NCBI GenBank assembly: GCA_964465685.1
Contig: CAYXKK010000002.1
Coordinates: 106,852-170,851, forward strand
DNA from: an uncultured Melioribacter sp.
GTDB taxonomy: Bacteria; Bacteroidota; Ignavibacteria; Kapaibacteriales; Kapaibacteriaceae
DNA length: 64,000 nucleotides
Reading direction: 5' to 3'
In this document: positions 13,517 through 61,279 of the stretch, in pieces
How the letters are laid out: each line of letters begins with the position of its first letter
How positions within the stretch are numbered: position 1 is the stretch's first letter
Position numbers and translations under genes: made by a program
Notes under the pieces: generated by a model
Databases searched by the model: none
Seen by the model: only the letters and a program-made list of their open reading frames with translations
What the model was told of the DNA's origin: nothing

Positions 13517-13551
13517 GTGTACCTCAAGAAATCGTAGAGGGCGAAAATACG

Positions 13552-14829: not shown

Positions 14830-14907
14830 TCGTTACCGTTACCAAAAATGAACAACGGCACATGGAGAAACTCCACGTGCCGTTGATGAATCTTCGTTTC
14901 ATCCACG

Positions 14908-15891: not shown

Positions 15892-15903
15892 AGTTGGTTC
15901 TCC

Positions 15904-44401: not shown

Positions 44402-45703
44402 ATGAATCTTGACGCAATTCTCGACGAACTGTTCGCGATGACGTTTCACGCCGGCATCAAACCTGGCTTAGAGCGTATCACAACGTTGTGCGGGTCTGTG
44501 GGTGACCCACAGGCTCATCTTCCTGTAATCCACGTTGCCGGAACCAACGGTAAGGGCTCGACGTGCTCGATGCTTGCTTCGATCTTCACAACGGCTGGAT
44601 ATAGAACTGGACTCTACACATCGCCCCACATTCGACATTTCCGCGAGCGCATACGCATCGACGGAGTGCCGATTACCGATGAAGAGATTGCCCGCTATGC
44701 AGTTCCTCTGATGAACAGCGCTCGTGAGATCGGCGGCACATTCTTCGAAGTCACCACCGCGATGGCATTGCAGTACTTCGCGGATCGACGTGTGGACGTT
44801 GTGGTGCTTGAGACTGGACTTGGCGGACGCTTAGATGCAACGAACATCGTGCATCCACTGCTGTCGGTAATCACGCAGATCGACATGGATCACATGGAAT
44901 ATCTCGGTACTACGCTTCCAGCAATCGCAGGTGAGAAGGCAGGAATCATCAAACCAGAGACACCAGTAGTGGTCGGCCATCACGGCGCCGACGTGCGGTC
45001 GGTGTTCGAACGCAAGGCCGAGCGCGAGCGTGCACCAATCGTCTTTGCAGACGATGTCGTTGATGTGCAATGCGATCGCATTCTTCCCGACCTTACCATG
45101 TCGGTCGCTGTTACTTCCACTGACGATCTACGGTATCTCCTGACAGATCTTGCAGGTGTCCATCAAACGCGCAACATCGCCACAGTACTCACAGCGCTGC
45201 CCTATCTCCGCACCACGTATTCGATCGACGATGTACACGTTGAGCAGGGGCTACGTCGCGTGCGGGCAATGACTGGACTGGCCGCACGGTGCGAGCTTAT
45301 GCAGACTGCTCCTCCTGTGATCCACGATGTATCGCACAACCCAGGTGGACTGCGTGCGTTAGCCGAAACACTACGAGCTGCTGGCTATGCCGACAATTCG
45401 TTCGACGTTGTGTTCGGCGCAATGTCGGATAAAGATGTCGACGGCATGCTGCGCGAGCTCCTCCCGATCACACGCACGTTGTACTGCTGCTCGCCTCATA
45501 TCCCCCGCAGTATGCCTGTCGATGAGCTTGTTGCACGCGCACGTGCTGTTGGTTACACATCAATCGTTGCATCGGCAAGTGTAGTTGAATCGTACCAATG
45601 CGCTCAAACGAACGAAGCTCCCACAGTTGCCTGCGGGAGCTTCCACGTGATCGATGAAGTTCGTGCGTTATCCGAGCAGGAGCGCAACGATAAACAGGAT
45701 TGA
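44402..45703 (+). CDS. folC: bifunctional folylpolyglutamate synthase / dihydrofolate synthase
   Basis: 433 aa; 'VIHVAGTNGKGSTCSMLASI' is the Mur-ligase P-loop and the remainder is collinear with FolC. Confidence 0.9.
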   Translation: MNLDAILDELFAMTFHAGIKPGLERITTLCGSVGDPQAHLPVIHVAGTNGKGSTCSMLASIFTTAGYRTGLYTSPHIRHFRERIRIDGVPITDEEIARYAVPLMNSAREIGGTFFEVTTAMALQYFADRRVDVVVLETGLGGRLDATNIVHPLLSVITQIDMDHMEYLGTTLPAIAGEKAGIIKPETPVVVGHHGADVRSVFERKAERERAPIVFADDVVDVQCDRILPDLTMSVAVTSTDDLRYLLTDLAGVHQTRNIATVLTALPYLRTTYSIDDVHVEQGLRRVRAMTGLAARCELMQTAPPVIHDVSHNPGGLRALAETLRAAGYADNSFDVVFGAMSDKDVDGMLRELLPITRTLYCCSPHIPRSMPVDELVARARAVGYTSIVASASVVESYQCAQTNEAPTVACGSFHVIDEVRALSEQERNDKQD

Positions 45704-46951
45704 GAAGCCGATCTGGAATTGAATGGTTGCAACGTTGCCCTTGACGAGCGTACGCGCATAAAGATGCTTGCGCATATACGACACGATCCACGCGGCAAAG
45801 AGCGTAGTAATGCCAGCAACACCGTAGAGATACGGATTGTTGAGTACCGTACCCAAATACGCCGTTACGCCTATCGCACCACCGATGAAGAGCATATAGA
45901 ACCACACGGCTGAGCGATAACCGAACGTGACAACCAAATGCGCCTTGCCCGTAGCTGCATCGCCTTCGGTGTCGGGGATCTGATTGATCAACAGAATGTT
46001 GGATGTGAGCAGACCTGCAGGAATGCCGACGAGGAATGCCATCGTTGCAAACGACGACCACAGCTCTGGCGCTGTCGAGGCCGTTGCAACGTAGAACACG
46101 CCTAGTGTGATCAGTGGACCGAAGGCAAGTCCAATCACAATCTCACCCAAGCCGTGACGCGCAACAAGGCGAAGCGGCGGTGCGGTGTAGAAGTAGCCAA
46201 GTGCAAGTCCCGCAAAACCGATTGCAAGCACGCCCGTGCCTACCGCATACGTCAGGTACACACCGATCAGGAACGCAAACAGCGCAAGCGTATTCGCTAC
46301 ACGGAGTGTTCCCTTGAGATCAATCAATCCCAGGAAGATCGATCGCGAGCCACCCGAGTACTGTGTGAAGTACTTGGTGTTCGCTTGGTCTGTGCCACTC
46401 TTGTAATCGAAGTAGTCATTGTAGACGTTGCTGGCGAGGTGAAGGAGTGCAACACCAAAGCACGCCAAGACCACATTGAGAACATTCACGCTGTGATCAA
46501 GCACACCTGCAACGTAGGCAAGCGCGATAAAACACGGCGTGAGTGCCGCTGTGAGGAACGGCGCACGCGTTACGACCAGCCACTTCACAAACTTGGTTGA
46601 TCCCTTGATCGGGACATCAACCGTGCTATCGAGCTCCTCGGTGACTCCGCAGAAGCCAATCTGCACGCCGTTCTTAAAGGTCGGCGTGATGCGGATCTGT
46701 GCGCCGAACAGTTCGCCGTTCTTGCGACGGAAATTTGTTTGACCAACCCACTCGCCTTCTTTCACTGCGGTAGCGAGCCAGCCACCGAGGTTTTGCAAGA
46801 CGATTTCGCCCGGCGAGAAATCACTCACACGCACCTTGCCAATCGTTTCTTCGCGTGAGTATCCGAACATCACTTGCGCCCCGTCGCTGAAGGTCTCAAC
46901 GATGCCTTCCATGTCGCAGGTGATCACAGACTTATCAAGTGCTGTTGCCAC
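45668..46951 (-). CDS. PAS domain fused to UbiA-superfamily prenyltransferase (MenA/DHNA-prenyltransferase-like)
   Basis: 427-aa ORF with a GTG start. Residues 1-~120 form a PAS fold ('SVITCDMEGIVETFSDGAQVMFGYSREETIGKV...GEWVGQTNFRRKNGELFGAQIRITP...NGVQIGFCGV'). The rest is an 8-9 TM UbiA core with the Asp-rich 'NVYNDYFDYKSGTD' motif and second motif 'NQIPDTEGDAATGK'. Confidence 0.8.
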   Translation of the reverse strand: MATALDKSVITCDMEGIVETFSDGAQVMFGYSREETIGKVRVSDFSPGEIVLQNLGGWLATAVKEGEWVGQTNFRRKNGELFGAQIRITPTFKNGVQIGFCGVTEELDSTVDVPIKGSTKFVKWLVVTRAPFLTAALTPCFIALAYVAGVLDHSVNVLNVVLACFGVALLHLASNVYNDYFDYKSGTDQANTKYFTQYSGGSRSIFLGLIDLKGTLRVANTLALFAFLIGVYLTYAVGTGVLAIGFAGLALGYFYTAPPLRLVARHGLGEIVIGLAFGPLITLGVFYVATASTAPELWSSFATMAFLVGIPAGLLTSNILLINQIPDTEGDAATGKAHLVVTFGYRSAVWFYMLFIGGAIGVTAYLGTVLNNPYLYGVAGITTLFAAWIVSYMRKHLYARTLVKGNVATIQFQIGFSILFIVALLLG

Positions 46952-47054: not shown

Positions 47055-48578
47055 ATGAATGCACTCATCTCCGTCTCCGACAAAACTGGTGTTGTTGAAT
47101 TTGCCCAAGAACTGCACGCTCTGGGCATCCGCTGTATCAGCACGGGCGGAACGGCAAAGGCTCTTGCCGAGGCTGGCGTCCCCGTCACGAAGGTCTCCGA
47201 TCTGACGGGATTTCCCGAGATCATGGATGGTCGCGTCAAGACCCTCCACCCGAAGATCCACGGAGGCTTGCTGGCGGCAATGGACAACCCAGAGCATGTC
47301 GCGCAGATGAACGAGCACGGAATCGAGAAGATCGACATTGTAGTCGTGAACCTCTATCCGTTCGAGCAAACAGTCGCTCGTGCAGGCGCGACGCCGGCAG
47401 AGATTATCGAGAACATCGACATTGGCGGACCTGCGATGGTGCGCGCATCGGCGAAGAATCACGCCCACACGACGATCATCGTTAATCCATCGCGTTACGC
47501 TGACGTCCTTGCAGAACTACGCGCCAACGGCACAACAACAATGCCTCTGCGTACAGAGCTTGCCATGGAGGCCTTTGCACACACAGCGCAATACGATGCA
47601 CGTATCACACAGTGGTTCGCCGAGCAAGGGGCACACGGATTCCTCAACGAATCAGCCATCCCTCTTCGTCGCGATCAATCCCTACGCTATGGCGAGAACC
47701 CGCATCAACAGGCGATGCTGTACGGAAGCTTCACATCGATCTTGAACCAGCTCCATGGCAAGGAACTCTCGTACAACAACATCCTCGATATCGATGCGGC
47801 GATGGGATTGTGCATGGAGTTCGACGAGCCTACAGTAGTCATCGTTAAGCACAATAACCCATGTGGCGTAGGATCGGGAGCAACGCTCGTCGAGGCCTAT
47901 GCAAAGGCATTTGCGACTGACACTGTGAGTCCGTTCGGAGGCATCATCGCGATGAACCGCGAAGTCGACATCACAATGGCCAACGAAATTCACTCGCTCT
48001 TCGCGGAAGTCTTGATTGCGCCGTCGTACACAGAAGAAGCACTCGCTCAGCTCACCAAGAAGAAGGACCGTCGCTTGATGACGGTCAACATGCAGGCATT
48101 CCGTACTGCATCACGCGTTAGCGTTCGTTCGGTCGCCGGAGGTTTTCTTGTGCAAGATGGCGACACAAAGCTGTTCAACGAGGCAGACCTTCGTGTTGTC
48201 ACCGCAACGCAACCAACACCAGACCAACACAAGGCAATGCTCTTCGCATGGAAGATTGCAAAGCACGTCAAGAGCAACGCAATCGTGTACGCAGCCGCTG
48301 ATCGCACGCTCGCTATCGGTGCTGGACAAATGTCGCGCATCGACTCCGCACGCATTGCTGTGCGCAAGGCTGCGGATGCAGGCATTGATCTTGCCGGATG
48401 TGCAGTAGCATCTGATGCATTCTTCCCGTTTGCCGACGGACTCCTGCAGGCAGCCGAAGCAGGTGCATCGTGCGTGATCCAACCAGGCGGCTCTGTTCGC
48501 GACGAAGAAGTCATCGCGGCCGCAAATGAAAAGGGACTCGCAATGATCTTCACCGGCACACGCCACTTCCGTCACTGA
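47055..48578 (+). CDS. purH: bifunctional AICAR transformylase / IMP cyclohydrolase
   Basis: ATG at 47055 gives 'MNALISVSDKTGVVEFAQELHALGIRCISTGGTAKAL', the MGS-like IMPCH domain, followed by the AICARFT domain. Confidence 0.95.
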   Translation: MNALISVSDKTGVVEFAQELHALGIRCISTGGTAKALAEAGVPVTKVSDLTGFPEIMDGRVKTLHPKIHGGLLAAMDNPEHVAQMNEHGIEKIDIVVVNLYPFEQTVARAGATPAEIIENIDIGGPAMVRASAKNHAHTTIIVNPSRYADVLAELRANGTTTMPLRTELAMEAFAHTAQYDARITQWFAEQGAHGFLNESAIPLRRDQSLRYGENPHQQAMLYGSFTSILNQLHGKELSYNNILDIDAAMGLCMEFDEPTVVIVKHNNPCGVGSGATLVEAYAKAFATDTVSPFGGIIAMNREVDITMANEIHSLFAEVLIAPSYTEEALAQLTKKKDRRLMTVNMQAFRTASRVSVRSVAGGFLVQDGDTKLFNEADLRVVTATQPTPDQHKAMLFAWKIAKHVKSNAIVYAAADRTLAIGAGQMSRIDSARIAVRKAADAGIDLAGCAVASDAFFPFADGLLQAAEAGASCVIQPGGSVRDEEVIAAANEKGLAMIFTGTRHFRH

Positions 48579-48591
48579 TTGCTACATACGC

Positions 48592-51021
48592 TTACTTCGT
48601 GCGCGACGCTTCGTGTAGTACATCTAGATTATGCTGCACCTTGCCGAAGACTGTGCCATCGGCAAAGTGCCCATCCTTGTGAATCTTGCCAGCGGGCACA
48701 CCCATCATCAGCTCAACAGCTTCTTCTACGCGTTCAATCGCGTAGATGTGAAACTTCTTCGCACGCACAGCATCGATGATTTCATCGCTGAGCATGAGAT
48801 CGTTGACGTTCTGAATCGGAATCACGACTCCTTGCGAGCCGCTAAGCCCCTTGTCCTTGCACACCTCAAAGAAGCCCGTGATCTTCTCGTTCACGCCACC
48901 GATCGCTTGAATGTCGCCCTTCTGGTTGATGCTACCCGTGATACCGAGATCTTGACGGATTGGGATATTCGAAATGGCACTCAGAAGCGCAATCATCTCC
49001 GCCGCAGATGCACTGTCCCCATCTACCCCACCATAGTTCTGCTCGAAGGCGATACTAGCTGTAAACGACATGTGCTGTCGTCGTGAGAACAACGTACGGA
49101 GCAGTCCTGAGAGGATGAGTACGCCCTTTGAGTGGATCGATCCGCTCATCGCAACTTCACGTTCGATGTTGATAATGCCCGCATTCCCAGCACTAACGGT
49201 TGCGGTAATCCGCGCCGGCTTGCCGAAGGAGACAATACCACTGCTGTACACTGTGAGGCCGTTGATCTGTCCTACGCGTGCGCCTTTCGTATCGATGAGC
49301 AACGTACCTTTCTTGATGCTCTCACGAATCGTTTCATCCGCACGACTACTTCGTCGGTGACGCATCGCTACTGCGTGACGCACATGCTCTTGACGCACAA
49401 CGCGCGATCCCTTGATCCGTGCAAAGTGTGACGCCTCGCGCAGAAGGTCCGCTGCATAGGCAAACTGCAGGCTGATCTTCGTGCTGGTGTCGGTAAATGC
49501 AACGGCCCATTCAATGATGGCTGCCGCTCCGCCGCGATCGCAGTGAAGGAGTGATTCCTCCGTTGCAATCTGCGAGATAAAGCCACAGTAATGGCGAATC
49601 ATTTCACGTGTGCGTGGTGCTTCGTCATCAAACTCTGCATGAACCTTGAACATCTTATGGAAGTCTTCGTCAGCCGCCCAGAGCGCGAGGTAAACAGCCG
49701 GATCACCGAGTAGGATGACCTTCACGTCAAGTCGAATGTAATCTGGCTTGATCGTGTTCAATTGAAACTGCATATCCAGTGGCTGAATGTCGAGACGTCC
49801 ATACAGGATGACCTTCTTGAGAGCGGCCCAAACGTTAGCATCTGCAAGGACATCCATCGCATTGAGGATGATGTAACCACCATCAGCACGAAGCAGGGAG
49901 CCTGCACGGATGTGGGATACGTCGCTTACGGTAAAGCCACGCGCATCAACACGACGTTCGATTGTACCGAAGAGCGACTGATACGTCGGCGACGTCTCAA
50001 CGATAATCGGTGCGATCTTCGTGTCGTAATTGTCGAGAATCAGATTCACTACTGACATTCGCTCGAGCTGACGTCCAAGTTCTTCCGTTGCTTCGTCGAC
50101 CATGCTATTGAGTTTGGCTGCATACACACGCACGAACTCCTCAATGTGATCGAGGATAAACCTTGTCAACCCAGAGATAAACTCCGTAACGCGATCTCGA
50201 GGAAAACTTGTACGGATATCTTCAAAGATGCCGTTGAGCAGAATACCAACCGCCGCTTGATCATGCTTTGCAAGTTCTTTGCGGAAATCAACCATCACTC
50301 GCATCGACCGACGTCCGATTTCGTTGAGTTCCTCGCGATACCGCTCATACGCAGTTTGAAGAGCGGTTGCCTGTTCGACTGTCAACTTCTTTGCTTCGAC
50401 TAGGTCGTCGAGTTCATCGATTGCAACTGGCTTCCCGTCAATCACTGGGAACACCTCCGTCTGCGTTGCACCCCCCTCTTCCTGTAGCGTACCGACAACG
50501 AACCCGGAGGGTCGGATCTTTGCATCGAACTCACCAACGAGTTTGTGCTCACGCTGCTGGAATCGTTGAATGATGCCCTTTCGTTCAGTTTGAAACTGTT
50601 CATCCTCAAAGAGCAGCGGTATTCGACGACGCACGACGGTCATTGCCTCGTCCATCATGCGGGCGAACACACGCCCCTCACCCGCAGCGAAGCGTAACAG
50701 TACCGGCTGATCCGGCGTACGGAAGTTGTTCACGTACGCGAAGTCATACAGGTGCGCACGCTCATCTTTTCGATCATCGAGAATCTGCCTAATCGTTGTC
50801 ATTCGCCCTGTGCCAACTACACCGGATGCCCAGATGTTGTATCCCTGACTCCGGATACCAGCTCCAAGCTCTATTGCCTCGATGGCGCGATCTTGTCCGA
50901 CGATGCGCTTGAGTGGCTTCACCTGCTTGGTTGTTGTTGTAAACGGCAGCTGCGCGTGGGGACACGTCCAGCGAAGTTGCGCTGGTGTGAGCGTTTGAAA
51001 CGACTTACCCTTCTTCGTCAT
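48592..51021 (-). CDS. Lon-like protease, LonC-type (AAA-like module with degenerate Walker motifs plus Lon_C serine protease domain)
   Basis: 809 aa with no Lon N-domain. The Walker A position reads 'ASGVVGTGRMT' (Lys replaced by Arg) and the Walker B region 'GGYIILNAMD' lacks DE. The C-terminal Lon protease domain carries the Ser site 'GVDGDSASAAEMIALLSAI' and a downstream Lys ('INQKGDIQAIGGVNEKI'). Confidence 0.75.
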   Translation of the reverse strand: MTKKGKSFQTLTPAQLRWTCPHAQLPFTTTTKQVKPLKRIVGQDRAIEAIELGAGIRSQGYNIWASGVVGTGRMTTIRQILDDRKDERAHLYDFAYVNNFRTPDQPVLLRFAAGEGRVFARMMDEAMTVVRRRIPLLFEDEQFQTERKGIIQRFQQREHKLVGEFDAKIRPSGFVVGTLQEEGGATQTEVFPVIDGKPVAIDELDDLVEAKKLTVEQATALQTAYERYREELNEIGRRSMRVMVDFRKELAKHDQAAVGILLNGIFEDIRTSFPRDRVTEFISGLTRFILDHIEEFVRVYAAKLNSMVDEATEELGRQLERMSVVNLILDNYDTKIAPIIVETSPTYQSLFGTIERRVDARGFTVSDVSHIRAGSLLRADGGYIILNAMDVLADANVWAALKKVILYGRLDIQPLDMQFQLNTIKPDYIRLDVKVILLGDPAVYLALWAADEDFHKMFKVHAEFDDEAPRTREMIRHYCGFISQIATEESLLHCDRGGAAAIIEWAVAFTDTSTKISLQFAYAADLLREASHFARIKGSRVVRQEHVRHAVAMRHRRSSRADETIRESIKKGTLLIDTKGARVGQINGLTVYSSGIVSFGKPARITATVSAGNAGIINIEREVAMSGSIHSKGVLILSGLLRTLFSRRQHMSFTASIAFEQNYGGVDGDSASAAEMIALLSAISNIPIRQDLGITGSINQKGDIQAIGGVNEKITGFFEVCKDKGLSGSQGVVIPIQNVNDLMLSDEIIDAVRAKKFHIYAIERVEEAVELMMGVPAGKIHKDGHFADGTVFGKVQHNLDVLHEASRTK

Positions 51022-54000
51022 GGCATTCTTCCTCGACTGTGGTGGCGACCAATATTCCCCAATGATCCTTCCGACAGACGTGTGTTACACGACATGTATC
51101 ACACGCGGCTTTGAGTGGACGTACAGGGTACATTCCCGATTGTAGTTGCTCAACTCCAGGTTGCAGCAACTGCAGAATTGAATCAAGTGTTTCCAACAAT
51201 GGCGTATGCACAGCCTTTGCACGCTTGCTCACAAGCTGCACCATGGGCGACCCCATATCGGCGAGCACCACTCGACGTTCGAGTTTATCAGGTGCTTGCA
51301 GTGCTGTTCCAAAGGCACGATACACGGCAGCTTCCGGTGCTACATCTATTCCGTGATGTGCGAACCACGTACGCACTGCAGCGAGGTACATGGGCATCTG
51401 CGAGGCAAGACCGCGATGAACATTCGTCGTCGAAAACGACCCTGACAGCGAGCTCTTGTAGTCTACGACTGCGACATGGAGAGCCCCTTGCACCTCGCGG
51501 ATGTCGATGCGATCAATTCGTGTCTTCACTGGGACACGCACGGTGCGGTCATCGACTGGGAGTTCTATCTCGATCTCGATCTCCTGCTCAAACAACACGG
51601 GCATAAACCCAGACGTCTGTTGATCGTCGCGTTCAAGAGCTAGCCATCGCTTCAGCAAGCCAGGCGTGGCATCGTCCCCTATCAGTGCTCGACGTTCCAC
51701 AGGTGCAAATGCATGCACATGCGATTGCTCTTCGAGCACCTCATCAACAACCTTTCTGAGCAGATGCCATTGTTCGTCAAAAGGAGTGCTGAGGAGGTTA
51801 ATCGCTGCCGATCTCAGTCCCGACTGTGTGAGTTCGACATCTGCCACAGTGCGAAGTCGACGGTACCAACGGTCAACAATGTCGTGCAGTAGATTTCCGC
51901 GTTCAAGGGGCGAGAGTCGCACGTCATCAATGTCGAGATCGTCCAGTCGCAATAGCGATTGAGCGAAGAATCTGTACGGACATTGAATCACAACATCAAG
52001 TCGTGACGGACTAATGGGGCGTGCAAGATCATCTTGGAGCACTCGCTGAGCTTCCTCATGAAGAAGAATACGCACATCACCATCTTGTGAGGTGCGCATC
52101 ACAGGTGCATGTGCAGGATTTACCCTTAGATCACGTGGATGCACAATACATGTCACATCGGGATCAGCACTCCTCCATCGCGACGAACCAACGCGAAGCG
52201 TACCCAGTGCATCCAGTGGCGTTGATGGCAGCACTGGCGAACCATCGAGTGTTGTCGGATACGTACACACCAACGTACCACCGGGCGCAACGGCGAAGGC
52301 AATATCTGCAAGTGATTCCCATGTGAGATGACGCTGCACATCGGGCACGACGTCTTCATCGAGTTGATTTACCGTCGTGCGGGGATACTCGCCTTCAATA
52401 CAACCAACAGCAACCACAAGCTCATATGCCATGCCGCGCAACTCTGCTGGACGCACAATGCGCACGCCCATGCGAGCGCGCTCCGTACTCGCTACTTCCG
52501 TAGCACGAATGATTGTCCACCACCGGTGCAAATGCGTCGCAAATGAACACGCCGGCAGTTCGTGATCACGGTGCACCGCCATGTAGGCAGAGCACGCATC
52601 GCGTATCGCTGCGAACGCCCACGGTTCGTGCTCTGCGCTCCGTTGCTCAAGATCAATCCCTACCGCAATCCGCGTCAGAAGAATCGAAACGAACCGATCA
52701 ACATCCATCATGCCATGAGTCGGTGCATCGAGCATTACGCGCAGATCTCGTAGAGTGCGCAGTGCATATGCATACCGCCCTGCATTACGTTTCGCATGAT
52801 CGTTGTCGTCGCCTTCCCGTTCTGCGAGCGCACGCATATCGCTGTGTCGTTGTTCGATGCGAGCAACCCACTCATCAACGCCACCGCCGCCGACAATCCG
52901 TTCCTCGCGTGCAATCACAAGCAAGGCAGGTCCGTTGCGCACAAGGTCGCGCACGAGCGGCTCTCGCACAACACGCTCGACATCCTCCCGCAACCAGCCA
53001 CCTGTCAGCACACGACAACAAGCATGCAACAGCGATGCAGTATGTGTGAGTGCAAGCGACTGTGTAGATCCGGTGTGTACTGGCACACCCGACTCTGCAC
53101 AGGCTTGACGAAGGCGATCGACATAGCGTTGATCGCCGGGGACTGTGATTGCCATCGACGTGCACGCAACCCCCTTCGATGCGGCTTCCTTGCATAGCGC
53201 AACAGCACGTCGTACTTCATCAGCACGTGTCGTGCACGGCACGATGCAGCGCTCACTCTCAGGCAGCGCAACAGCACGATGTGCTCCGATATGCCATCCC
53301 TGGGCGACGAACCACTGCATGTCGCGTTCGGTGCGCGATACACGTTCGTCATCAAGCGACGGTACCTCGGGCGCGAACTGTACTGCGATGTCCCATCCCG
53401 ACGTTGCAAGTGACTGCAGCAATTCCGCATCAACTCCAGTCACACCATGTGTATCAATCACAAGGCAGTGCGATATCGCATCACCCGACGGTGCGCGTAG
53501 AGCGTTGCAATTCGAGACTCGGACGCCATCGACGATGCGACGACTATACGTGCCGCGATCTGCAGCGCGCGAACCGAGCAGATCTTCATACGATTCCCAA
53601 ATCCGTGCGGCTGTTGCAAGCTGTCGAGCCCCTCGATTGGATGGATGACGTGCAGCCGCATCACGCAGCCATGCTGGCGAGCGAAGTTCCTGCGCCCAGC
53701 GCACGATGCGTGATGCGCGCAGGCGAACCGATCCGCGTGGCAGATCGCACACATCCATTGCGTGCTGCAGGAGCACTTCGACGGAACTGTCAGGAAGAAT
53801 CCGCGGCACAATCTCCAGCACCTGCGGAGCAAGTGCACGATACAAACCGGCCATTGTCATGATTGTCGGCGGTTCTCCACGTCCGTGCGCGCGCGCCCAC
53901 TGAATCAGTACGTCCTCGCGCTGACGCGACGTCGGCACGATGATGAGCGTTGGGATACTGGGCAGAGCTGCGATACGAACGTCACGCGATTGTGCCGCAC

Positions 54001-54049
54001 ACACATCGTGGAAGACTGTTTCGGGTGTCGAAGAAATCCATGATGTCAT
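51005..54049 (-). CDS. AddB-like PD-(D/E)XK nuclease family protein with C-terminal Fe-S cysteine cluster, orphan
   Basis: About 1015 aa. The N-terminal degenerate helicase-like region 'LIIVPTSRQRED' lacks a GKT P-loop. The C-terminal nuclease domain carries the AddB-type 'CDTCRVTHVC' (CxxCx5C) cluster. No adjacent addA. Confidence 0.65.
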   Translation of the reverse strand: MTSWISSTPETVFHDVCAAQSRDVRIAALPSIPTLIIVPTSRQREDVLIQWARAHGRGEPPTIMTMAGLYRALAPQVLEIVPRILPDSSVEVLLQHAMDVCDLPRGSVRLRASRIVRWAQELRSPAWLRDAAARHPSNRGARQLATAARIWESYEDLLGSRAADRGTYSRRIVDGVRVSNCNALRAPSGDAISHCLVIDTHGVTGVDAELLQSLATSGWDIAVQFAPEVPSLDDERVSRTERDMQWFVAQGWHIGAHRAVALPESERCIVPCTTRADEVRRAVALCKEAASKGVACTSMAITVPGDQRYVDRLRQACAESGVPVHTGSTQSLALTHTASLLHACCRVLTGGWLREDVERVVREPLVRDLVRNGPALLVIAREERIVGGGGVDEWVARIEQRHSDMRALAEREGDDNDHAKRNAGRYAYALRTLRDLRVMLDAPTHGMMDVDRFVSILLTRIAVGIDLEQRSAEHEPWAFAAIRDACSAYMAVHRDHELPACSFATHLHRWWTIIRATEVASTERARMGVRIVRPAELRGMAYELVVAVGCIEGEYPRTTVNQLDEDVVPDVQRHLTWESLADIAFAVAPGGTLVCTYPTTLDGSPVLPSTPLDALGTLRVGSSRWRSADPDVTCIVHPRDLRVNPAHAPVMRTSQDGDVRILLHEEAQRVLQDDLARPISPSRLDVVIQCPYRFFAQSLLRLDDLDIDDVRLSPLERGNLLHDIVDRWYRRLRTVADVELTQSGLRSAAINLLSTPFDEQWHLLRKVVDEVLEEQSHVHAFAPVERRALIGDDATPGLLKRWLALERDDQQTSGFMPVLFEQEIEIEIELPVDDRTVRVPVKTRIDRIDIREVQGALHVAVVDYKSSLSGSFSTTNVHRGLASQMPMYLAAVRTWFAHHGIDVAPEAAVYRAFGTALQAPDKLERRVVLADMGSPMVQLVSKRAKAVHTPLLETLDSILQLLQPGVEQLQSGMYPVRPLKAACDTCRVTHVCRKDHWGILVATTVEEECHDEEG

Positions 54050-54145
54050 AGGTAAGGGGCCAATCAAGCGGACGTATCTTTGCTGGGCATCACGACAATG
54101 GGACTCAATATGATTGCATGTCGGCATTCAACCAAATGTTGGCTC

Positions 54146-54778
54146 ATGATTTCTACGATAACTCTGTCGTGGATTCTCATCGGCTGCGGAGCCACACAGC
54201 CCGTCCGTGTTCTTCCTGCACACACAACAGCCATTACAGCATCCCTGGGCGGTCCGGTTGTGCCCGGCAAGTCACCGACCGTGATCACGCCGTATCTGAC
54301 AGGAGGCGTGCTCCATGGCATCTCCGATGGTGTGACGCTGCACGGCAATCTCCACCTCCTAATGGCGGCATTCGCTGTAGCAGGCGTCGATGTTGGTGCA
54401 AGCACACGCGTGGTGCGCGGTGATGGATGGACGCCGGAGATTACCGGAAGCGTGCGAGCATATGGATTTGTACAACTCTCCGACCAACCCAAGCCGCGCA
54501 TCTATCCATCGCTTTCAGCAAATGCCTCGTGGTCTGTTCGTGAGCGCGACCTCGTGTATGTTGGCACACATGCGACTGCGCAATGGACACCGAGCTCCGT
54601 GTTTGTGAGTCCGTTTGTAGGATACAGCTTCGCAGCATCAGACATGATCTCACTGCAACTCGAATGCATCTGGCAAGCAGCGAATCACGATACACACAGC
54701 GGCATACTCGAGGGCATCTCGTCAATCAGTGGACAAGGATCATTCGGAATTTTTCTTGCAGGAGCACTCCGTCTATGA
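54146..54778 (+). CDS. hypothetical lipoprotein
   Basis: Internal ATG with classical lipobox 'LSWILIGCGATQP' and no recognisable domain. Its stop overlaps the next gene's ATG. Confidence 0.5.
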   Translation: MISTITLSWILIGCGATQPVRVLPAHTTAITASLGGPVVPGKSPTVITPYLTGGVLHGISDGVTLHGNLHLLMAAFAVAGVDVGASTRVVRGDGWTPEITGSVRAYGFVQLSDQPKPRIYPSLSANASWSVRERDLVYVGTHATAQWTPSSVFVSPFVGYSFAASDMISLQLECIWQAANHDTHSGILEGISSISGQGSFGIFLAGALRL

Positions 54779-55601: not shown

Positions 55602-56189
55602 ATGTTCACAGGGCTCGTCGAAGAGACAGGTACGATTACTTCTTGCACGCCGCACGATGGCAAGCTTCGTCTGCGCATCACAGCCGAGCGCATCATGGAT
55701 GATCTCGCGATCGATCACAGCGTCGCCGTGCAAGGTGTTTGCCTCACAGTTGTCGAACACGATGCAACAAGTTTCGCTGTTGACGTCATCACGGAAACGC
55801 TCACAAAGACAAGCATCGGGACACTGCGTGAAGGATCACACGTCAACCTCGAGCGCGCCGTACGTATGGCAGATCGCTTAGGCGGACACCTCGTGCAGGG
55901 ACATGTCGACACGACGGGAACCGTACACGAGATCATCACGAGCGACGGACGTTGGGAGATCTGGATCGCATTCCCTGCATCCTATCGCAAGTGGCTTATC
56001 CCTGTAGGCTCAGTGTGCATCAACGGCGTATCACTCACTGTTGCCGACCTCACAGACACGTTGCTGAAGGTTGCCATCATCCCGCACACGCTCGCCGTAA
56101 CCACGTTGCGTGATCTCGCCGTGGGTGACCCAGTAAATCTCGAGTTCGATATGCTTGCAAAGTATATCGAGCAGCTGATGCCGCGTTAA
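55602..56189 (+). CDS. ribE: riboflavin synthase (alpha subunit)
   Basis: 195 aa; 'MFTGLVEETGTI' and two lumazine-binding repeats ('GVCLTVVE' and 'GVSLTVAD'). Confidence 0.9.
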   Translation: MFTGLVEETGTITSCTPHDGKLRLRITAERIMDDLAIDHSVAVQGVCLTVVEHDATSFAVDVITETLTKTSIGTLREGSHVNLERAVRMADRLGGHLVQGHVDTTGTVHEIITSDGRWEIWIAFPASYRKWLIPVGSVCINGVSLTVADLTDTLLKVAIIPHTLAVTTLRDLAVGDPVNLEFDMLAKYIEQLMPR

Positions 56190-57736
56190 CGTTCGAAGCC
56201 GCCTGGTACGTAGCGCGTGCGTGGCTGCTGTGTTACACGCCATGTCACGCGTGTTGCAAGTCGTGCGATGTTGCTCAGATCGTCGAGGTTAATCTTCTCG
56301 ACATGATCTGTGATCTTGTGGTAGTCTGCATGCTCGCCAGTGAAGAAGAAGATCACCGGGATGCGACGTCGTGCGAATGAAGCTTGATCACTGCGGAAGA
56401 AGTACCGCTCGATATCATAGGCAAGCGTCATAGGACGTTCAAGCGCGGCATTTTCCTGCTCATTGATTGCGATCATGTCCGGACAGCGTTCATTGCCGCC
56501 GATCGAGAGCTTGTTGTTTTCGCAGCGACCGATCATATCCATGTTCACCATTGCCACGCATGAGTCAAGGGGCAAGGGCGATGCGTCAACATAGGCGCGA
56601 GAGCCGAGGAGTCCCTTTTCCTCCCCAGAAAACGCAACGAACACAACACTACGGTCTGTACGCTGCGACGATGTTGCGAGTGCTTCGGCGGCCATCAGCA
56701 ATCCTGTTGTGCCCGACGCATTATCATCAGCACCATTGAACACGGTATCCGGATTATCACCCAGCTTACTCACACCAATGTGGTCATAGTGCGCTCCCAT
56801 TACAGCATACTCGTGCGGAACACGCGCACCACGAAGTCGTGCGTGGACGTTGCGCACGGGAACTTGCTCGCGGGCAATCTTGACAACGCACGAGAACCGT
56901 GCATCTGGAAGTACACGCGATGCAGGCGCGAGAGTTGAATCGAGTTGCAGCGTCAATGCCTTGACGGCACCAACAGAGTCGAGCAGGAATTCGACGACAC
57001 GTTCGCCGACGTGTACGCATGGGAGTGAGCGCGTTGTATCTGGAAGTTGCAATGGACGTGAATCGCCACGCTTCGAGTTCTTGCTAACCGATGCCCATGG
57101 GAAACCCGTCACGAAGGGCTTGCGTGGTGCTCGGATCGCATCGACTACCATGATGCCCACTGCGCCGTGCTTGCGAGCATTCTCGATCTTCGATCGCAAT
57201 GTGCTGTACCATGTGAACTGCTTGCCACGGAACTTCGATGTATCGGCGTTCTCAGGTTCACCACGAAGAATCAGAACAACGGCTCCTGTGGCATCGATCG
57301 ATGCGTAATCATCGTATGAATACTCGGGAGCTGTGATGCCAAACCCAGCGAACACTATCGGCGCATTGCTAAGCGTCGCGTCGCCTGTTTCTTCAAATGG
57401 CATAAAGTCAGTTTTGATTGTTGCATCAAGCGTGCGATTGCCTCGAGAAATCGTCGCGGTGCACGGGAGTTGGAGATCGAGTCGCTCCAGATTGTAGTGG
57501 TGGAAGTACGAACCTCCAACCGGCTCCAGGCCGAGATCGCGAAATCGCTGGGCGATGTATTCGGCAGACATCTCGAGTTCCCGCGATGGAGTGTCTCGCC
57601 CCTTCATCGAATCGGCAGCGAGCACCTCAATGTGTTGACTGGCGCGCATACGTGTAAAGCGCGCATCAGCATCTGCTGGAAACGGACGTGGTTCGCCGAG
57701 TGTAACGAGTGCAAGTGCACAGAGGAGAAGCATCAT
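56186..57736 (-). CDS. M28 family zinc peptidase with PA domain, secreted
   Basis: 516 aa with a signal peptide, a PA domain and an M28 catalytic core ('AHYDHIG', 'DDNASGTTGLL', 'FVAFSGEEKGLLGS'). Confidence 0.8.
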   Translation of the reverse strand: MMLLLCALALVTLGEPRPFPADADARFTRMRASQHIEVLAADSMKGRDTPSRELEMSAEYIAQRFRDLGLEPVGGSYFHHYNLERLDLQLPCTATISRGNRTLDATIKTDFMPFEETGDATLSNAPIVFAGFGITAPEYSYDDYASIDATGAVVLILRGEPENADTSKFRGKQFTWYSTLRSKIENARKHGAVGIMVVDAIRAPRKPFVTGFPWASVSKNSKRGDSRPLQLPDTTRSLPCVHVGERVVEFLLDSVGAVKALTLQLDSTLAPASRVLPDARFSCVVKIAREQVPVRNVHARLRGARVPHEYAVMGAHYDHIGVSKLGDNPDTVFNGADDNASGTTGLLMAAEALATSSQRTDRSVVFVAFSGEEKGLLGSRAYVDASPLPLDSCVAMVNMDMIGRCENNKLSIGGNERCPDMIAINEQENAALERPMTLAYDIERYFFRSDQASFARRRIPVIFFFTGEHADYHKITDHVEKINLDDLSNIARLATRVTWRVTQQPRTRYVPGGFER

Positions 57737-58152
57737 ACTGGGAGGTTGTACGTGATCATAACATGCATCCCGGGATCACCCGGACGGAATTCAACGGCAT
57801 CAGCAAGTTGGCGAATGAGAAAGACACCTCGACCTCCCTCACGAAGAACATTCTCTGGAAGTCGTGGGTCGGGCACCTGATCCGGGTCGAATCCCATACC
57901 GTAGTCACGCACGACAATCGTGACATTGCTATCGGTGGTGTGCACCTCAACATCGACCATCACATCGCCACGACATCCGTGGGCGTGTATGATGGCGTTG
58001 TTCACAGCCTCGGTAATCGCAACATGCAGATCATGCAGCCGCTGCGGTCCAAGACGCACAAGTTCCTGAATCGACTCGAGGAAGGGGCCCACAACAGCGA
58101 TGCTCTGTCGCTCACTCGGCACACGAAGTGCGTATGTATGTCGGCTACTCAT
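57733..58152 (-). CDS. anti-sigma regulatory factor / Ser-protein kinase (RsbW/SpoIIAB-like HATPase_c)
   Basis: 139 aa with N-box 'EAVNNAIIHA', G1 'VRDYGMGF' and G2 'GGRGVFLIRQL'. It overlaps both flanking genes by 4 nt. Confidence 0.7.
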   Translation of the reverse strand: MSSRHTYALRVPSERQSIAVVGPFLESIQELVRLGPQRLHDLHVAITEAVNNAIIHAHGCRGDVMVDVEVHTTDSNVTIVVRDYGMGFDPDQVPDPRLPENVLREGGRGVFLIRQLADAVEFRPGDPGMHVMITYNLPV

Positions 58153-58155
58153 GCG

Positions 58156-60081
58156 CTACAGGCGAACAACCGTTCGCAACAAAAGATTCGGTAGTTCACG
58201 TCGTTGAGAGACATTGATCGTTTGAAACTCGTACCAACCTGAAAGTGAAAGTGTCGACCCACCAGGCGTGGTGTACCGGAGTGCCATTTCGGGCCCAATC
58301 GACTTCGTCGATCCATTAAGCCCGCCCACCAGCAGGGATGTTTGTTCCAGCGTGTACAGGCGTATGCCTGCACCAACACTCCAAGCCTGCGAAGGGGCCG
58401 AAAAAATAAGGACTTTCGCGAGGTACTCAAGATTTCCTGTTTCTGGACGCTCAGCAAAGCTCGACCATACAAGCGTGGCACGCTCGAAGTATCGGAAGAG
58501 GAGCGGAGCTTCAACCGACAGCGTCGGCGAGAGGCGGACGCGAATCGAATCGCGATACGAGAGCTGACGAAACGAAAACGACCGCACCGATGATGCGACT
58601 CCTTCGAAATCATACGCCGTGTAGTTCGCAAGGATTTCGAACTGCGGACGAAGCTGGACGTGCTGCGTGGTGAAGATGAACGACGGCGAGAGGCGCAGAA
58701 CGCGATTCACGTTGTTAAGCGCACTTCGTGATGCTTTCAAGAACACTAAATGCAGATACTGTCCGGAGAGACTCAGATTCATTGAGAGTGAGGAACTCAG
58801 AGCAACGCCATATGACAGCGTCGCAACTGTTGCGAGCTCGTCACGGTCATCATCATTGGTTGCACTTGGGGTATCATACCGCACCAACCATCCCGTTACA
58901 TCAGCGCGGAGTGTATCACGTGGCGTCAGGAGCCACGAGGCCGATCCATACAAGCGCGTTCGCAGCGTCTGATTATCGCGCTGCAGCTCCTGCAATCGAA
59001 CACTTTGCACGTCCTGATCGGACGCACCATGGACGTTCTGCACGCCATTGAGTTCGCTCCGCTGGAAGATCGATCCACCACCAGTGACTGTCACTGTGCG
59101 CGAAACAACCGTCATGTAGCCCTCAATATCGACTACTAACTCGCGGAGTTGACGTTCAACGAAACTGAGTGGCAGTGCTGCCACAGGCGTCGCGTATGCG
59201 CGGTCGACAGCTCCAGATGTGATCGACGATCGCAGGTTCACTGAGAGCGCATCCGTTACTGCGTATACGATGTCGGCGCTGGCGGCGAGGCGACGCTCGG
59301 AACGCTGTTCCACATCAAGGACCGCATTCTGCGTAAGCGTAGTAAAAAACTGGCGTCCGAGATTGATCGATTCGACCGAGAGGCGCAGCGTAGACCCCTC
59401 TGACAACGAACGCGAGAGACTCGTACGAACCTCTAGGTCGGAGTTCTGGCGCTGCGCATCGAGTCGCTGCCAGTCGGCAATGCCGTCTGCCGAGATCACC
59501 CATTGATCGACATCCAGATCCATAATCCGTCCGCTGATCCCTGCCAGGGGGCCCGAAGCCGTTACCCCCAGCTGCGACGAACGTTCCGCACCGGCAAGCA
59601 CCTCGACCCATATCGACTCGTCAGGGGCAAATCGCACCCCTCCCGCAACGTTGAGTCGCTCTAGCTCATTCAGTCCGATACTCCTCGAATCCGAGGAAAC
59701 AATCCACCCCTGGCGCACTATCGCCTGTAGTGTCGAGCTCAATGGATGTAACCAAGAGCCCTGCCAGACTTGATCATCGCGCGTTGCGAGCGTACTTGTA
59801 CGGAACGCAGACGATCTGTACTGGTTAACAAATCGAAGAAATCCGACCTCGGTCTGCACCCCGATATCGGCATTCCCGACCCATACAAACGTGTTCGTAA
59901 TCTTATCTACACCGAACTCGATTCCACGTCCGTATGGAGCCTCTCTAGCCTGTAATAAAGGGGAAATCTGCTGTGCGCGCACATTCGATACTACACCCAA
60001 AACACACAGAATCACGACCCCGACTGCCGCAATCCAGGACCCCGAATACGACCAAAACACGTCAAAATACCGATGTAACAA
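58156..60081 (-). CDS. large hypothetical outer-membrane beta-barrel-like protein
   Basis: The ORF runs to 60399, but a signal peptide 'WIAAVGVVILCVLGVVSNVRAQQ' appears only at about residue 120, so the start is probably the TTG/GTG near 60081-60060. The mature ~620-aa protein has amphipathic beta-strand patterning and no motif I recognise. Confidence 0.5.
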   Translation of the reverse strand: MLHRYFDVFWSYSGSWIAAVGVVILCVLGVVSNVRAQQISPLLQAREAPYGRGIEFGVDKITNTFVWVGNADIGVQTEVGFLRFVNQYRSSAFRTSTLATRDDQVWQGSWLHPLSSTLQAIVRQGWIVSSDSRSIGLNELERLNVAGGVRFAPDESIWVEVLAGAERSSQLGVTASGPLAGISGRIMDLDVDQWVISADGIADWQRLDAQRQNSDLEVRTSLSRSLSEGSTLRLSVESINLGRQFFTTLTQNAVLDVEQRSERRLAASADIVYAVTDALSVNLRSSITSGAVDRAYATPVAALPLSFVERQLRELVVDIEGYMTVVSRTVTVTGGGSIFQRSELNGVQNVHGASDQDVQSVRLQELQRDNQTLRTRLYGSASWLLTPRDTLRADVTGWLVRYDTPSATNDDDRDELATVATLSYGVALSSSLSMNLSLSGQYLHLVFLKASRSALNNVNRVLRLSPSFIFTTQHVQLRPQFEILANYTAYDFEGVASSVRSFSFRQLSYRDSIRVRLSPTLSVEAPLLFRYFERATLVWSSFAERPETGNLEYLAKVLIFSAPSQAWSVGAGIRLYTLEQTSLLVGGLNGSTKSIGPEMALRYTTPGGSTLSLSGWYEFQTINVSQRRELPNLLLRTVVRL

Positions 60082-60166
60082 ATCGAGGTGTTTCGTTCCT
60101 GTTTTGACAACGCCCACCGATACTTTGCAACTGCCAACCACTTGTAACACAACCCCAGCTAGTGAA

Positions 60167-61279
60167 ATGGACCCACAACCACGCGCAATGCTCGTCGTCG
60201 AGTCCGACCCAGAGCGCCGGATTCGACTCGCTGAGGCTCTAAGCAAGCAGCATGTTGCAGTTCTATTTGCTGAAGACGTTGCAGCAGCGGAATCGATCGT
60301 TACGCGAAAGCGTGTAGCGGCGGTCGTCATAGGTGCACAGGTCGGCGACCACGGATCGATCCGTGAACGCTTGTGCATACATGGGCTAGATGTTGACACG
60401 CCGATCCTTCTCCTGGACGAATACTCTGCAGACGTACCGCTGGAATTCCCGTCGGAGCCTACAGGAGCTCTGTACGAGCATTCAACAACGGATGTAGCAA
60501 CGGGAGGTTCTGAAGCTCAAGTATCGCTGCTCTATGCCCTGCCGCACGAATATCGCACTCCGCTAACGGACATCATCGGACAATCGGCAATGCTCCAAGA
60601 TCACGCCAGCGACATGACGTCTGAGGAAATCCAAGAATCCACTAGCGACATTCTTCGCTCGGCGCGACGGCTTCTCCGCATCACCGACAATTTCCTGCTC
60701 TTTGCTCAACTTGAGACGCTTGGCGAAAGCCCCTATCATGTTAAGCGCATGCGGCAGTATTCTACGCCTTGCGCAGGAAGTGTGATCAGCGATGTCGTGC
60801 GGGAGCGCACCCTTGCACGAGAGCGTGGCTCTGATGTTACCCTACACAACATCTGTCATGGAGTCACCGCACGAATACTGCCTCAATATCTCGGCAACAT
60901 CGTCGGGGAAATCGTCGACAACGCGTGTGCATTTAGTGACTCTGGCAAGCCTATCTGCGTAGCTATGGACTGGGACGATACATCGTACACCATTCGCGTG
61001 ACCGACTCGGGTGTTGGGATGTCGGATGACGAATGTGCTTCGATCGGACCCTATCGGCAGTTTCGCAGGAACCAGCAGGAACAGCAAGGCGTCGGACTAG
61101 GTCTGGTGATTGCGAAACGGCTAACGGAACTTCACGGAGGCATCCTCACTCTTCACTCCGTCCAACACGTGGGAACGACTGTTATTGTGTCGCTCCCACG
61201 TGCAGACGTACGCGTGTCGCATCATGTGGGTATGCACATTAGCGTACCTCCGACACAGATTGCTCTGGCATGTGCTTGA
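60167..61279 (+). CDS. cytoplasmic histidine kinase with N-terminal pseudo-receiver domain
   Basis: ATG at 60167 (MDPQPRAMLVVESDPERR...). The REC-like fold lacks the phospho-acceptor Asp ('VAAVVIGAQVGDHG'). It is followed by HisKA 'LPHEYRTPLTDIIGQS' and HATPase_c (N-box 'IVDNACAFSD', 'VTDSGVGM', 'GVGLGLVIAKRL'). No TM segment. Confidence 0.75.
   Translation: MDPQPRAMLVVESDPERRIRLAEALSKQHVAVLFAEDVAAAESIVTRKRVAAVVIGAQVGDHGSIRERLCIHGLDVDTPILLLDEYSADVPLEFPSEPTGALYEHSTTDVATGGSEAQVSLLYALPHEYRTPLTDIIGQSAMLQDHASDMTSEEIQESTSDILRSARRLLRITDNFLLFAQLETLGESPYHVKRMRQYSTPCAGSVISDVVRERTLARERGSDVTLHNICHGVTARILPQYLGNIVGEIVDNACAFSDSGKPICVAMDWDDTSYTIRVTDSGVGMSDDECASIGPYRQFRRNQQEQQGVGLGLVIAKRLTELHGGILTLHSVQHVGTTVIVSLPRADVRVSHHVGMHISVPPTQIALACA

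Follow-up and report, generated by a model that had tools for sequence, protein, structure and literature searches.

An overlapping AddB-like nuclease and LonC protease gene pair conserved within one bacterial lineage

A gene for a Lon-like protease (lonC) overlaps a gene for a large AddB-like nuclease on the minus strand of the stretch of DNA analysed here (64,000 nucleotides in total; hereafter the window). The N-terminus of AddB has an SF1-helicase-like fold and is not an active motor; its partner AddA, normally encoded in the same operon, combines a UvrD-type helicase with a nuclease domain. In the window, unlike in AddB operons, no addA is adjacent and lonC fills the overlapping downstream slot. 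The locus therefore raises the question of whether a dedicated protease is coupled to a DNA-end nuclease, as a repair or defence pairing proposed in a sequence-only reading of this DNA, or whether the two genes are neighbours for other reasons. The best explanation of the adjacency was gene-order history in a densely packed genome, and not a dedicated nuclease-protease mechanism.

Layout of the locus and the gene junction

The features of the locus are the following (window coordinates):

48592..51021, minus strand: lonC gene, 809 aa (ORF and translation)
48838..49023, minus strand: protease active-site region of LonC (aa 667-728), with Ser670, Lys713 and the CKDKGLSG insertion
49858..49881, minus strand: degenerate Walker B-like motif GGYIILNA of LonC (aa 381-388), with Asn for Asp and without the catalytic Glu
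50797..50823, minus strand: degenerate Walker A-like motif GVVGTGRMT of LonC (aa 67-75), with Arg in the Lys position
51005..51021, minus strand: overlap of the nuclease stop and the lonC start, 17 nt (TAA ends at 51005, ATG at 51021)
51005..54049, minus strand: addB-like nuclease gene, 1014 aa (listed ORF 51005-54127)
51050..52012, minus strand: PD-(D/E)XK nuclease domain (~aa 680-1000), with the four-cysteine cluster
52100..54049, minus strand: helicase-like N-terminal two-thirds of the nuclease (~aa 1-650), a fold match without a Pfam match
54050..54109, no strand: short intergenic region that separates the nuclease gene from a divergently oriented 222-aa gene

The nuclease start at 54049 was taken from gene callers on identical public contigs; the large size reported earlier for this protein stood, and its length was corrected from 1015 to 1014 aa. 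The junction, read from the nuclease gene into lonC (...GAATGCC ATG ACG AAG AAG GGT AA), confirmed the 17-nt same-strand overlap. Its polarity had been described the wrong way round, as nuclease start on protease stop: the nuclease gene contributes its 3' end (stop) to the overlap and lonC its 5' end (start), so that the nuclease gene lies upstream and lonC downstream.

Because the upstream neighbour is divergent and the downstream purH convergent, the two genes were regarded as a stand-alone unit, for which 54050..54109 would be the promoter region. They are very likely transcribed together, and their translation is probably coupled via the stop/start overlap. No sigma-70-like site was detected in 54050..54109 or between the nuclease gene and lonC by a simple scan, which does not cover Bacteroidota-type promoters. 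A promoter/terminator scan of 48300-54400, unsuited to promoters of that type, returned nothing above shuffled expectation and no terminator-like site at the junction.

Identity of the two proteins

By its sequence, the 809-aa protein is a true LonC, a Lon-like chaperone-protease. Pfam matches were obtained for LonC_helical, AAA_32, LonB_AAA-LID and Lon_C, and none for a Lon N-domain (E <= 0.01), in line with the earlier assignment to the LonC type. The closest solved structures were TTC1975/MtaLonC (E 9e-82, over aa 326-775); alignment of the N-terminal 325 residues to TTC1975 was weak. The protein shares with these LonCs (PDB 4fwd, 7euy, 8k8v) the order of an AAA-like module with helical-hairpin insertion, LID and Lon_C. 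Like them, it has the CX3GLXG insertion, the Ser-Lys dyad and degenerate Walker motifs, and lacks an N-domain and a membrane segment. The CX3GLX(G/E) signature that defines the LonC insertion lies between helix alpha3 and strand beta9, and the second LonC-specific insertion sits in helix alpha5 (PMC3391209). In the window protein the former reads CKDKGLSG (aa 721-728), and the alpha5 region was aligned to TTC1975 without gaps. The catalytic Ser670 was located within DGDSAS (aa 667) and Lys713 within VNEKITG (aa 710); the dyad region aligned gap-free with 4fwd, S670 and K713 included, in agreement with the intact dyad read earlier. A LonB identity was rejected, as no membrane anchor was present (maximum 19-residue hydropathy 1.39) and the LonC insertions were.

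This LonC is expected to be devoid of ATPase activity, with proteolysis unstimulated by ATP, because its Walker A site lacks the Lys and its Walker B site both the Asp and the Glu. Both defects had been noticed in the sequence-only reading and were found as described: Arg replaces Lys in GVVGTGRMT, and the acidic pair is absent from GGYIILNA. The corresponding sites of MtaLonC are GPPSLGKHE and GYLILDA (PMC3391209). Compared with these, the Walker A site of the window protein is more degraded (GTGRMT versus GKHE, Lys to Arg) and its Walker B site has Asn in place of Asp; both changes were fixed across the compared Kapabacteria/Ignavibacteria group. Among ten LonC sequences (45-100% identity, from paired and unpaired loci), G70, T71, G72, R73, T76 and N387 were invariant, and S670, K713, C721, G725 and G728 were invariant or nearly so. 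The window LonC appears to come from a mesophilic environmental lineage, whereas MtaLonC (Meiothermus taiwanensis) and TTC1975 (Thermus thermophilus) are from Deinococcus-Thermus. LonC has been described as a heat-shock chaperone-protease. Two LonC studies (PMC3391209, PMC13069640) mention no operon or DNA partner, and report neither a role in vivo nor a dedicated substrate. No relevant paper was found on a Lon-like protease together with AddB.

Fold and motifs make the 1014-aa protein AddB-like, but it stands outside the curated AddB equivalogs. Its Pfam match was PDDEXK_1 (E 5e-29), ADDB_N was undetected, and the AddB/RexB equivalog models TIGR02773, TIGR02786 and TIGR02774 gave 47, 33 and 29 bits, where the cutoffs lie far higher, at 904, 486 and 718. 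An AF2 model obtained from the family alignment (pLDDT 86.3) showed a full-length fold, and its top Foldseek matches, also over the full length, were the Bacillus subtilis AddB chains 3u44_B and 4cei_B (E ~2e-29, TMq 0.64-0.67), followed by the AdnA, RecC and UvrD helicase folds. The N-terminus, already described as a degenerate helicase, carries a VPTSRQRE motif at aa 38 with no P-loop ahead. Comparison with P0288, a short AddB-type protein in which GAGSGKT still precedes the VPT motif, likewise placed no Walker A P-loop in the window nuclease.

The nuclease core is complete, with the motifs RIDRID (D846, D849), DYK (D863, K865) and QxxxY (Q884, Y888). It is bracketed by C690 upstream and C983-x2-C986-x5-C992 downstream, cysteines that are predicted to form an Fe-S cluster stapling the nuclease domain. 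These catalytic-motif residues and the four cysteines were invariant in 29 family members (22-70% identity), and the earlier description of an AddB-like PD-(D/E)XK nuclease with a CxxCx5C motif was upheld. B. subtilis AddB has the same C-terminal RecB-type nuclease and the same four bracketing cysteines with CX2CX5C spacing; the window nuclease is ~150 aa shorter and differs from it in the missing Walker A P-loop, the undetected ADDB_N domain and the low equivalog scores.

Gene order in related and distant loci

Related loci were found by contig searches, including one with a 9-sequence alignment, LonC being at least 62% identical. Both genes were carried by 29 loci (a few duplicates included), and were adjacent in every one of them, with identities to the window of 62-89% for LonC and 27-70% for the nuclease. 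Stop and start overlapped or nearly abutted in 28/29. The junction measured between -73 and +14 nt in all but one locus, where it was +124 nt; the conserved overlap was mostly 4 or 16 nt, and overlap persisted where the nuclease was only 27-43% identical. The co-occurrence and overlap in related genomes that had been proposed as a check were thus both observed. They make co-transcription plausible, and the translational coupling suggested from the overlap stays at probable. Every examined member of the AddB-like subfamily with downstream sequence was followed by lonC, never by addA. A homologue search with an alignment of distant members yielded few family members; it added the paired locus L113 and two loci with a canonical addB.

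The whole ~20-kb block (pcrA/uvrD ... ribE, purH, folC, rpsA) was conserved in the same lineage. Flanks permitting, its order was uvrD, a 747-aa gene, HATPase, M28, ribE, abhydrolase, the 222-aa gene, the nuclease gene and lonC, purH, UbiA, folC and rpsA. The nuclease-lonC adjacency was one of the few in this block without exception. In one locus (L005), M28, abhydrolase and the 222-aa gene were missing; UbiA was missing in L009, L010 and L113, and in L113 cobW genes were inserted between lonC and purH. Tight packing was general: in L001, overlaps or gaps of <= 3 nt were found at 5 of the 8 co-directional junctions, and such junctions joined unrelated genes (an anti-sigma-type kinase with an M28 peptidase, an alpha/beta-hydrolase with riboflavin synthase).

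No AddA-type gene was found within the 64-kb window, nor in the blocks of the related loci (up to ~23 kb). The nuclease can be called an orphan, as it had been, only within these limits. Two genes were considered as AddA and rejected. The UvrD-family gene at the window end, correctly described earlier as having no nuclease domain, is of the PcrA/UvrD type with a tudor domain and lies 8 kb away; its 72-97% conservation, which is housekeeping-like, was a further point against a partner role. The 1074-aa ORF at 17858-21082 encodes an FG-GAP/ASPIC repeat protein.

Outside the lineage the pair was not encountered. An AddB-family neighbour was present at 0/77 more distant metagenomic LonC loci (38-48% identity), 64 of which have > 1 kb of upstream sequence; the AddB-family HMM used for the neighbours detects distant AddB proteins in positive controls (E ~1e-38 to 1e-40). 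Genes alongside these distant lonC genes included an AI-2E transporter, an MFS transporter, a pseudouridine synthase and GNAT, and a locus with a 50% identical LonC (L006) had an SNF2 helicase and dapA. The Lon-like gene is hence conserved among unrelated neighbours, an outcome that the sequence-only reading had itself named as speaking against the pairing.

Distant AddB homologues with readable downstream sequence (three) were all found beside a UvrD-type gene. In L114, addB was followed by a complete addA (1115 aa, UvrD-helicase and PDDEXK_1), in L115 by a 461-aa UvrD-helicase gene (a fragment), and in L031 (Myxococcota) by an addA-sized 1396-aa ORF with UvrD similarity. The short AddB-type proteins (P0288 in L114; L031) are 970-1125 aa long, similar to the window nuclease, share its PDDEXK_1 C-terminus and were matched by its family HMM (E ~1e-38 to 1e-40). 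In their operons, as in the window pair, the upstream gene overlaps the downstream gene. The difference is the downstream partner: the overlapping slot is held by addA or a UvrD-type gene in L114 and L115, and by lonC in the lineage of the window.

Explanations for the pairing and their meaning

The most likely reading, which we hold with moderate confidence, is that the operon is specific to this lineage and that its two proteins act separately. The addB-like gene and lonC would form an operon set within a core-genome block that is conserved in a Kapabacteria/Ignavibacteria-type lineage. The nuclease would be a diverged AddB-type subunit, in which an inactive, P-loop-less SF1-helicase-like scaffold is joined to an intact, Fe-S-stabilised RecB-family nuclease; it would cut DNA ends in double-strand-break processing, with a motor subunit probably encoded elsewhere. 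By analogy with MtaLonC and TTC1975, a LonC hexamer would degrade or hold unfolded proteins without ATP hydrolysis, independently of the nuclease.

Alternatively, LonC may act on the AddB-like nuclease or its partners, which we consider somewhat unlikely. LonC might serve the large Fe-S protein as a dedicated chaperone or help in its assembly, a role for which the chaperone activity and substrate-recognition helical hairpin of MtaLonC (PMC13069640) would suit it. It could also be a protease that limits the nuclease level and thereby controls end resection. In either case it would occupy, in this lineage, the place of the AddA motor in the operon. Such a link would fit the adjacency that never breaks while other block junctions do, the conserved stop/start overlap, a P-loop-less subfamily never seen beside addA, and the addA or UvrD-type gene that overlaps at the position of lonC in canonical relatives. 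However, retained adjacency, overlap and slot replacement do not count as independent support, because all trace to a single evolutionary origin, in a lineage with general synteny, and none of the 77 other LonC loci has the pairing. R73 and N387 are the same in paired and unpaired LonCs, so that no pairing-specific adaptation of LonC is visible. Nor do the rates resemble those of tightly co-evolving partners, LonC being 62-89% conserved and the nuclease down to 27-43%. A dedicated partnership is therefore possible but unsupported, the pairing being confined to one lineage in which the whole housekeeping neighbourhood is conserved too. We regard as unlikely a unit in which an ATP-independent LonC folds, assembles or proteolytically limits a nuclease that has lost its P-loop and adjacent AddA.

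The fast divergence of the nuclease (27-43% identity where block neighbours have 55-92%) bears on two further readings. It is often seen in arms-race genes and would suit an anti-phage defence system, in which the nuclease is the effector and the Lon-like protease a sensor or regulator, as with BrxL in BREX. BrxL (BREX type 1) has a Lon-type protease domain like that of the window LonC, and is a Lon-like protein tied to DNA-directed functions. LonC matched BrxL weakly in PADLOC, over the protease domain only (E 1.8e-6), but PADLOC (PADLOC-DB v2) gave no match for the nuclease, and the NCBIfam BrxL family model scored 16 bits against a cutoff of 628. A BrxL/BREX identity was rejected, with scores far below cutoffs and no other BREX genes nearby. 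The pair moreover keeps one fixed position in a stable housekeeping block (ribE, purH, folC, rpsA, pcrA/uvrD) across all related loci examined. Neither mobile-element nor defence-island genes lie nearby, and GC content shows no anomaly; a defence role is very improbable. The same divergence, together with the lost helicase P-loop and the absence of addA nearby, could mark an AddB-like gene decaying after addA loss and kept for carrying the promoter of lonC upstream. Against such a remnant, most related loci have an uninterrupted frame of ~1000 codons (the nuclease match of L035 was split over two frames), none of the catalytic residues or cluster cysteines varies among 29 sequences with identities as low as 22%, and the family alignment gives a confident full-length fold (pLDDT 86). 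Open frame, invariant residues and confident fold indicate purifying selection on a working protein, and decay is scarcely credible.

Each of the two proteins can be recognised as a member or variant of a known family, and the evidence for their coupling goes back to one origin of the gene order, within a block that is conserved in its entirety. The locus also serves as a caution that overlapping genes and conserved adjacency in one lineage do not by themselves indicate a functional system. If the nuclease and LonC did work as a unit, they would constitute a protease-gated DNA-end-processing module without a described counterpart; a real link would provide a first specific client for LonC and reveal a new control of end resection.

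Layout of the nuclease and protease genes

The two genes lie head-to-tail on the minus strand, in long ORFs at 51005-54127 and 48592-51021. Gene callers, on identical public contigs, place the nuclease start at the second Met (54049), giving a 1014-aa product, and the next gene (lonC) encodes 809 aa. At the junction (...GAATGCC-ATG-ACG-AAG-AAG-GGT-AA) the lonC ATG is at 51021 and the nuclease TAA ends at 51005. The 17-nt overlap described in the sequence-only reading is thus present, in the opposite orientation: the nuclease stop overlaps the protease start, and not the reverse. The 5' neighbour of the nuclease is a divergent plus-strand gene (222-aa product) and the 3' neighbour of lonC is a convergent purH, so that the pair forms a self-contained two-gene unit. 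GC content at the locus is unremarkable.

No AddA-type gene was found within the 64-kb window, in agreement with the earlier claim that the nuclease has no AddA beside it, and its 'orphan' status is established locally, on that scale. The sole UvrD-family gene of the window, at its end, is of the PcrA/UvrD type with a tudor domain (~777 aa in relatives); as already read, no nuclease domain was found in it. A 1074-aa ORF (17858-21082, minus strand) was considered as AddA and rejected as an FG-GAP/ASPIC repeat protein. Other features of the window are as follows.

Other features of the window (coordinates, strand, description)
17858-21082, minus: the FG-GAP/ASPIC repeat protein, large, secreted-type, unrelated to the pair
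24419-26347, minus: heparinase II/III-like protein, large, secreted-type, unrelated to the pair
30601-32739, minus: Kelch and legume-lectin protein, large, secreted-type, unrelated to the pair
45668-46951, minus: PAS_9 domain fused to a UbiA-family prenyltransferase (fusion in most relatives)
56186-60399, minus: 664-747-aa protein with no Pfam match, 139-aa HATPase_c_2 protein (anti-sigma-factor-type kinase) and M28 peptidase
~59891-61279, plus: HisKA/HATPase_c sensor kinase gene, overlapping the preceding trio on the opposite strand

The genes of the trio are tightly packed (3-nt gap and 4-nt overlap); the 664-747-aa protein and the HATPase_c_2 kinase are kept throughout the clade, and the M28 peptidase is absent in two related loci (L005 and L028).

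Family assignment of the two proteins

Sequence models covered solely the C-terminal PDDEXK_1 domain of the 1014-aa protein (E 5e-29), and AddB family models scored 29-47 bits, far under their cutoffs. An exhaustive HMMER search returned ~40 full-length relatives (24-41% identity), beyond which came AddB-type proteins of ~1150-1200 aa, some aligning across ~850 residues. In a 29-sequence alignment the Fe-S cysteines (C690, C983-x2-C986-x5-C992) and the nuclease residues (D846, R847, D849, D863, Y864, K865, Q884, Y888) were invariant; together they would make up a complete RecB-type active site and an AddB-typical cluster of four cysteines. The top structural matches of an AlphaFold2 model built on this alignment (pLDDT 86.3, pTM 0.70) were, over the full length, the AddB chains of AddAB-DNA complexes (E ~2e-29, TMq 0.64-0.67), followed by AdnA, RecC and UvrD. 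The N-terminus carries a 'VPT' motif at aa 38 with no P-loop ahead of it, whereas P0288, a canonical short AddB encoded in locus L114, keeps GAGSGKT before VPT. Fold, N-terminus and invariant residues bear out the earlier description of an AddB-like protein with a degenerate helicase-like N-terminus and an Fe-S PD-(D/E)XK nuclease. Fold and motifs thus place it with AddB, yet it scores below the curated AddB models and has no adjacent AddA.

The study in which LonC was defined (PMC3391209) gives four hallmarks: GPPSLGKHE as the Walker A-like motif, GYLILDA as a Walker B-like motif lacking the catalytic Glu, an insertion of the form CX3GLX(G/E), and a second insertion in helix alpha5. In the 809-aa protein Pfam identified LonC_helical, AAA_32, LonB_AAA-LID and Lon_C domains and no Lon N-terminal domain; no membrane-like segment was found in it. 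The nearest solved structures are those of TTC1975 (Thermus thermophilus) and MtaLonC (Meiothermus taiwanensis), with E 9e-82 over aa 326-775.

Motifs of the LonC protein (minus strand)
aa 67-75, 50797-50823: Walker A-like GVVGTGRMT, Lys replaced by Arg
aa 381-388, 49858-49881: Walker B-like GGYIILNA, Asp also replaced, by Asn
from aa 721: LonC insertion CKDKGLSG, corresponding to CX3GLX(G/E)
Ser670 and Lys713: catalytic dyad

Domains, motifs, insertion and dyad all match the LonC hallmarks, so the LonC-type assignment with dead Walker motifs stands; judged by its sequence, the protease is a true LonC in every defining feature that could be tested. R73 and N387 were invariant in 10 LonC sequences with identity down to 45%, which makes the dead Walker motifs a fixed trait of this whole Kapabacteria/Ignavibacteria-type group. 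MtaLonC and TTC1975 keep the Lys and Asp, whereas Kapabacteria/Ignavibacteria-type LonCs have the invariant Arg (GTGR) and Asn. MtaLonC still binds nucleotide; given the invariant Arg and Asn, even nucleotide binding may have been lost in this subgroup. MtaLonC itself has been described as a heat-shock chaperone-protease without ATPase (PMC13069640).

Conservation of the pair within and outside the lineage

Related loci (L007-L028) were found via the nuclease in species-representative genomes. In every related locus with downstream sequence present, lonC lay directly 3' of the nuclease, within a conserved order: on one side uvrD, the 600-750-aa protein of no assigned function, the HATPase_c_2 kinase, M28 peptidase, ribE, alpha/beta-hydrolase and the 222-aa protein; on the other purH, PAS-UbiA, folC and rpsA. 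The block-bearing MAGs of L007-L028 go under the names Melioribacter, Ignavibacteria, Kapaibacterium, Bacteroidota, 'Chitinophaga pinensis', 'Patescibacteria group' and 'Didemnitutus', a number of which must be misassignments or the result of contaminated bins.

In 28 of 29 related loci the nuclease and lonC genes either overlapped (by 4, 16, 17, 20, 26, 44 or 73 nt) or lay no more than 14 nt apart; in the other they were separated by 124 nt. Tight junctions are ordinary in this block: in a control locus (L001), 5/8 co-directional junctions were overlaps or gaps of at most 3 nt, and the genes so connected are unrelated. The adjacency is among the most stable of the block, and other members erode: M28, alpha/beta-hydrolase and the 222-aa gene are all missing in L005, and UbiA in L009, L010 and L113. 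In L113, two cobW-family GTPase genes lie between lonC and purH (13484-15924), and the upstream side carries an inserted AAA_5-like gene and DUF1905 gene, with the nuclease-lonC junction intact. This stability is mild evidence for operon-level constraint.

To look beyond the lineage, 80 metagenomic loci collected via LonC were searched with a nuclease-family HMM, which in positive controls picks up distant AddB proteins (E 1e-36 to 1e-44). The nuclease was present in just two, those with LonC of at least 62% identity and upstream sequence available; no family match was obtained in the 77 loci with LonC of 38-48% identity (64 with >1 kb upstream, 67 with >1 kb downstream). One Kapaibacterium genome, whose LonC is 50% identical, likewise lacked the pairing. 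Unpaired LonC genes had varied neighbours (AI-2E transporter, MFS transporter, pseudouridine synthase, GNAT). Distant AddB homologues adjoin UvrD-type genes: a complete 1115-aa addA (UvrD-helicase and PDDEXK_1) overlaps the addB end in L114, a 461-aa UvrD-helicase fragment overlaps addB at its 3' side in L115, and a 1396-aa ORF with UvrD similarity follows a 1125-aa AddB-like ORF in L031.

Meaning of the pairing

The dedicated nuclease-protease pairing proposed earlier was not supported by the comparison. The pairing arose once and was inherited with its whole neighbourhood, no independent recurrence was seen, and by synteny comparison LonC elsewhere has unrelated neighbours and no nuclease association, an outcome that the sequence-only reading had itself listed as telling against its proposal. 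This history weighs against a real functional link between the two proteins, which we consider rather unlikely, even though the two genes are adjacent without exception, their overlap has been retained, the AddB-like subfamily to which the nuclease belongs has lost its P-loop and was never seen adjoining addA, and lonC holds addA's usual slot. A protease-gated end-processing module is a shade less likely again. A defence system is highly improbable because of the fixed position in the core genome, the housekeeping neighbours and the absence of a PADLOC match for the nuclease.

The nuclease is the fastest-diverging gene of the syntenic block: its identity across L005-L028, L033, L035 and L113 is 27-43%, against 62-76% for LonC, 69-76% for purH, 72-83% for uvrD and 85-92% for rpsA. 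The active-site and Fe-S residues of the nuclease are nonetheless invariant across this very deep divergence, so a decaying remnant is very unlikely. The fast divergence would be explained if the helicase-like scaffold came under relaxed constraint once a partner had been lost, and equally by diversifying pressure, e.g. from phage inhibitors of end-processing nucleases.

Both proteins are of known kinds, and no description of an addB-like/lonC operon was found in the literature. The most economical explanation, towards which we lean, is a lineage-specific operon in which each protein keeps its own family role: the nuclease would be an AddB-type Fe-S subunit for DNA-end processing, its motor partner probably encoded elsewhere, and the lonC product would act as an ATP-independent LonC chaperone-protease.
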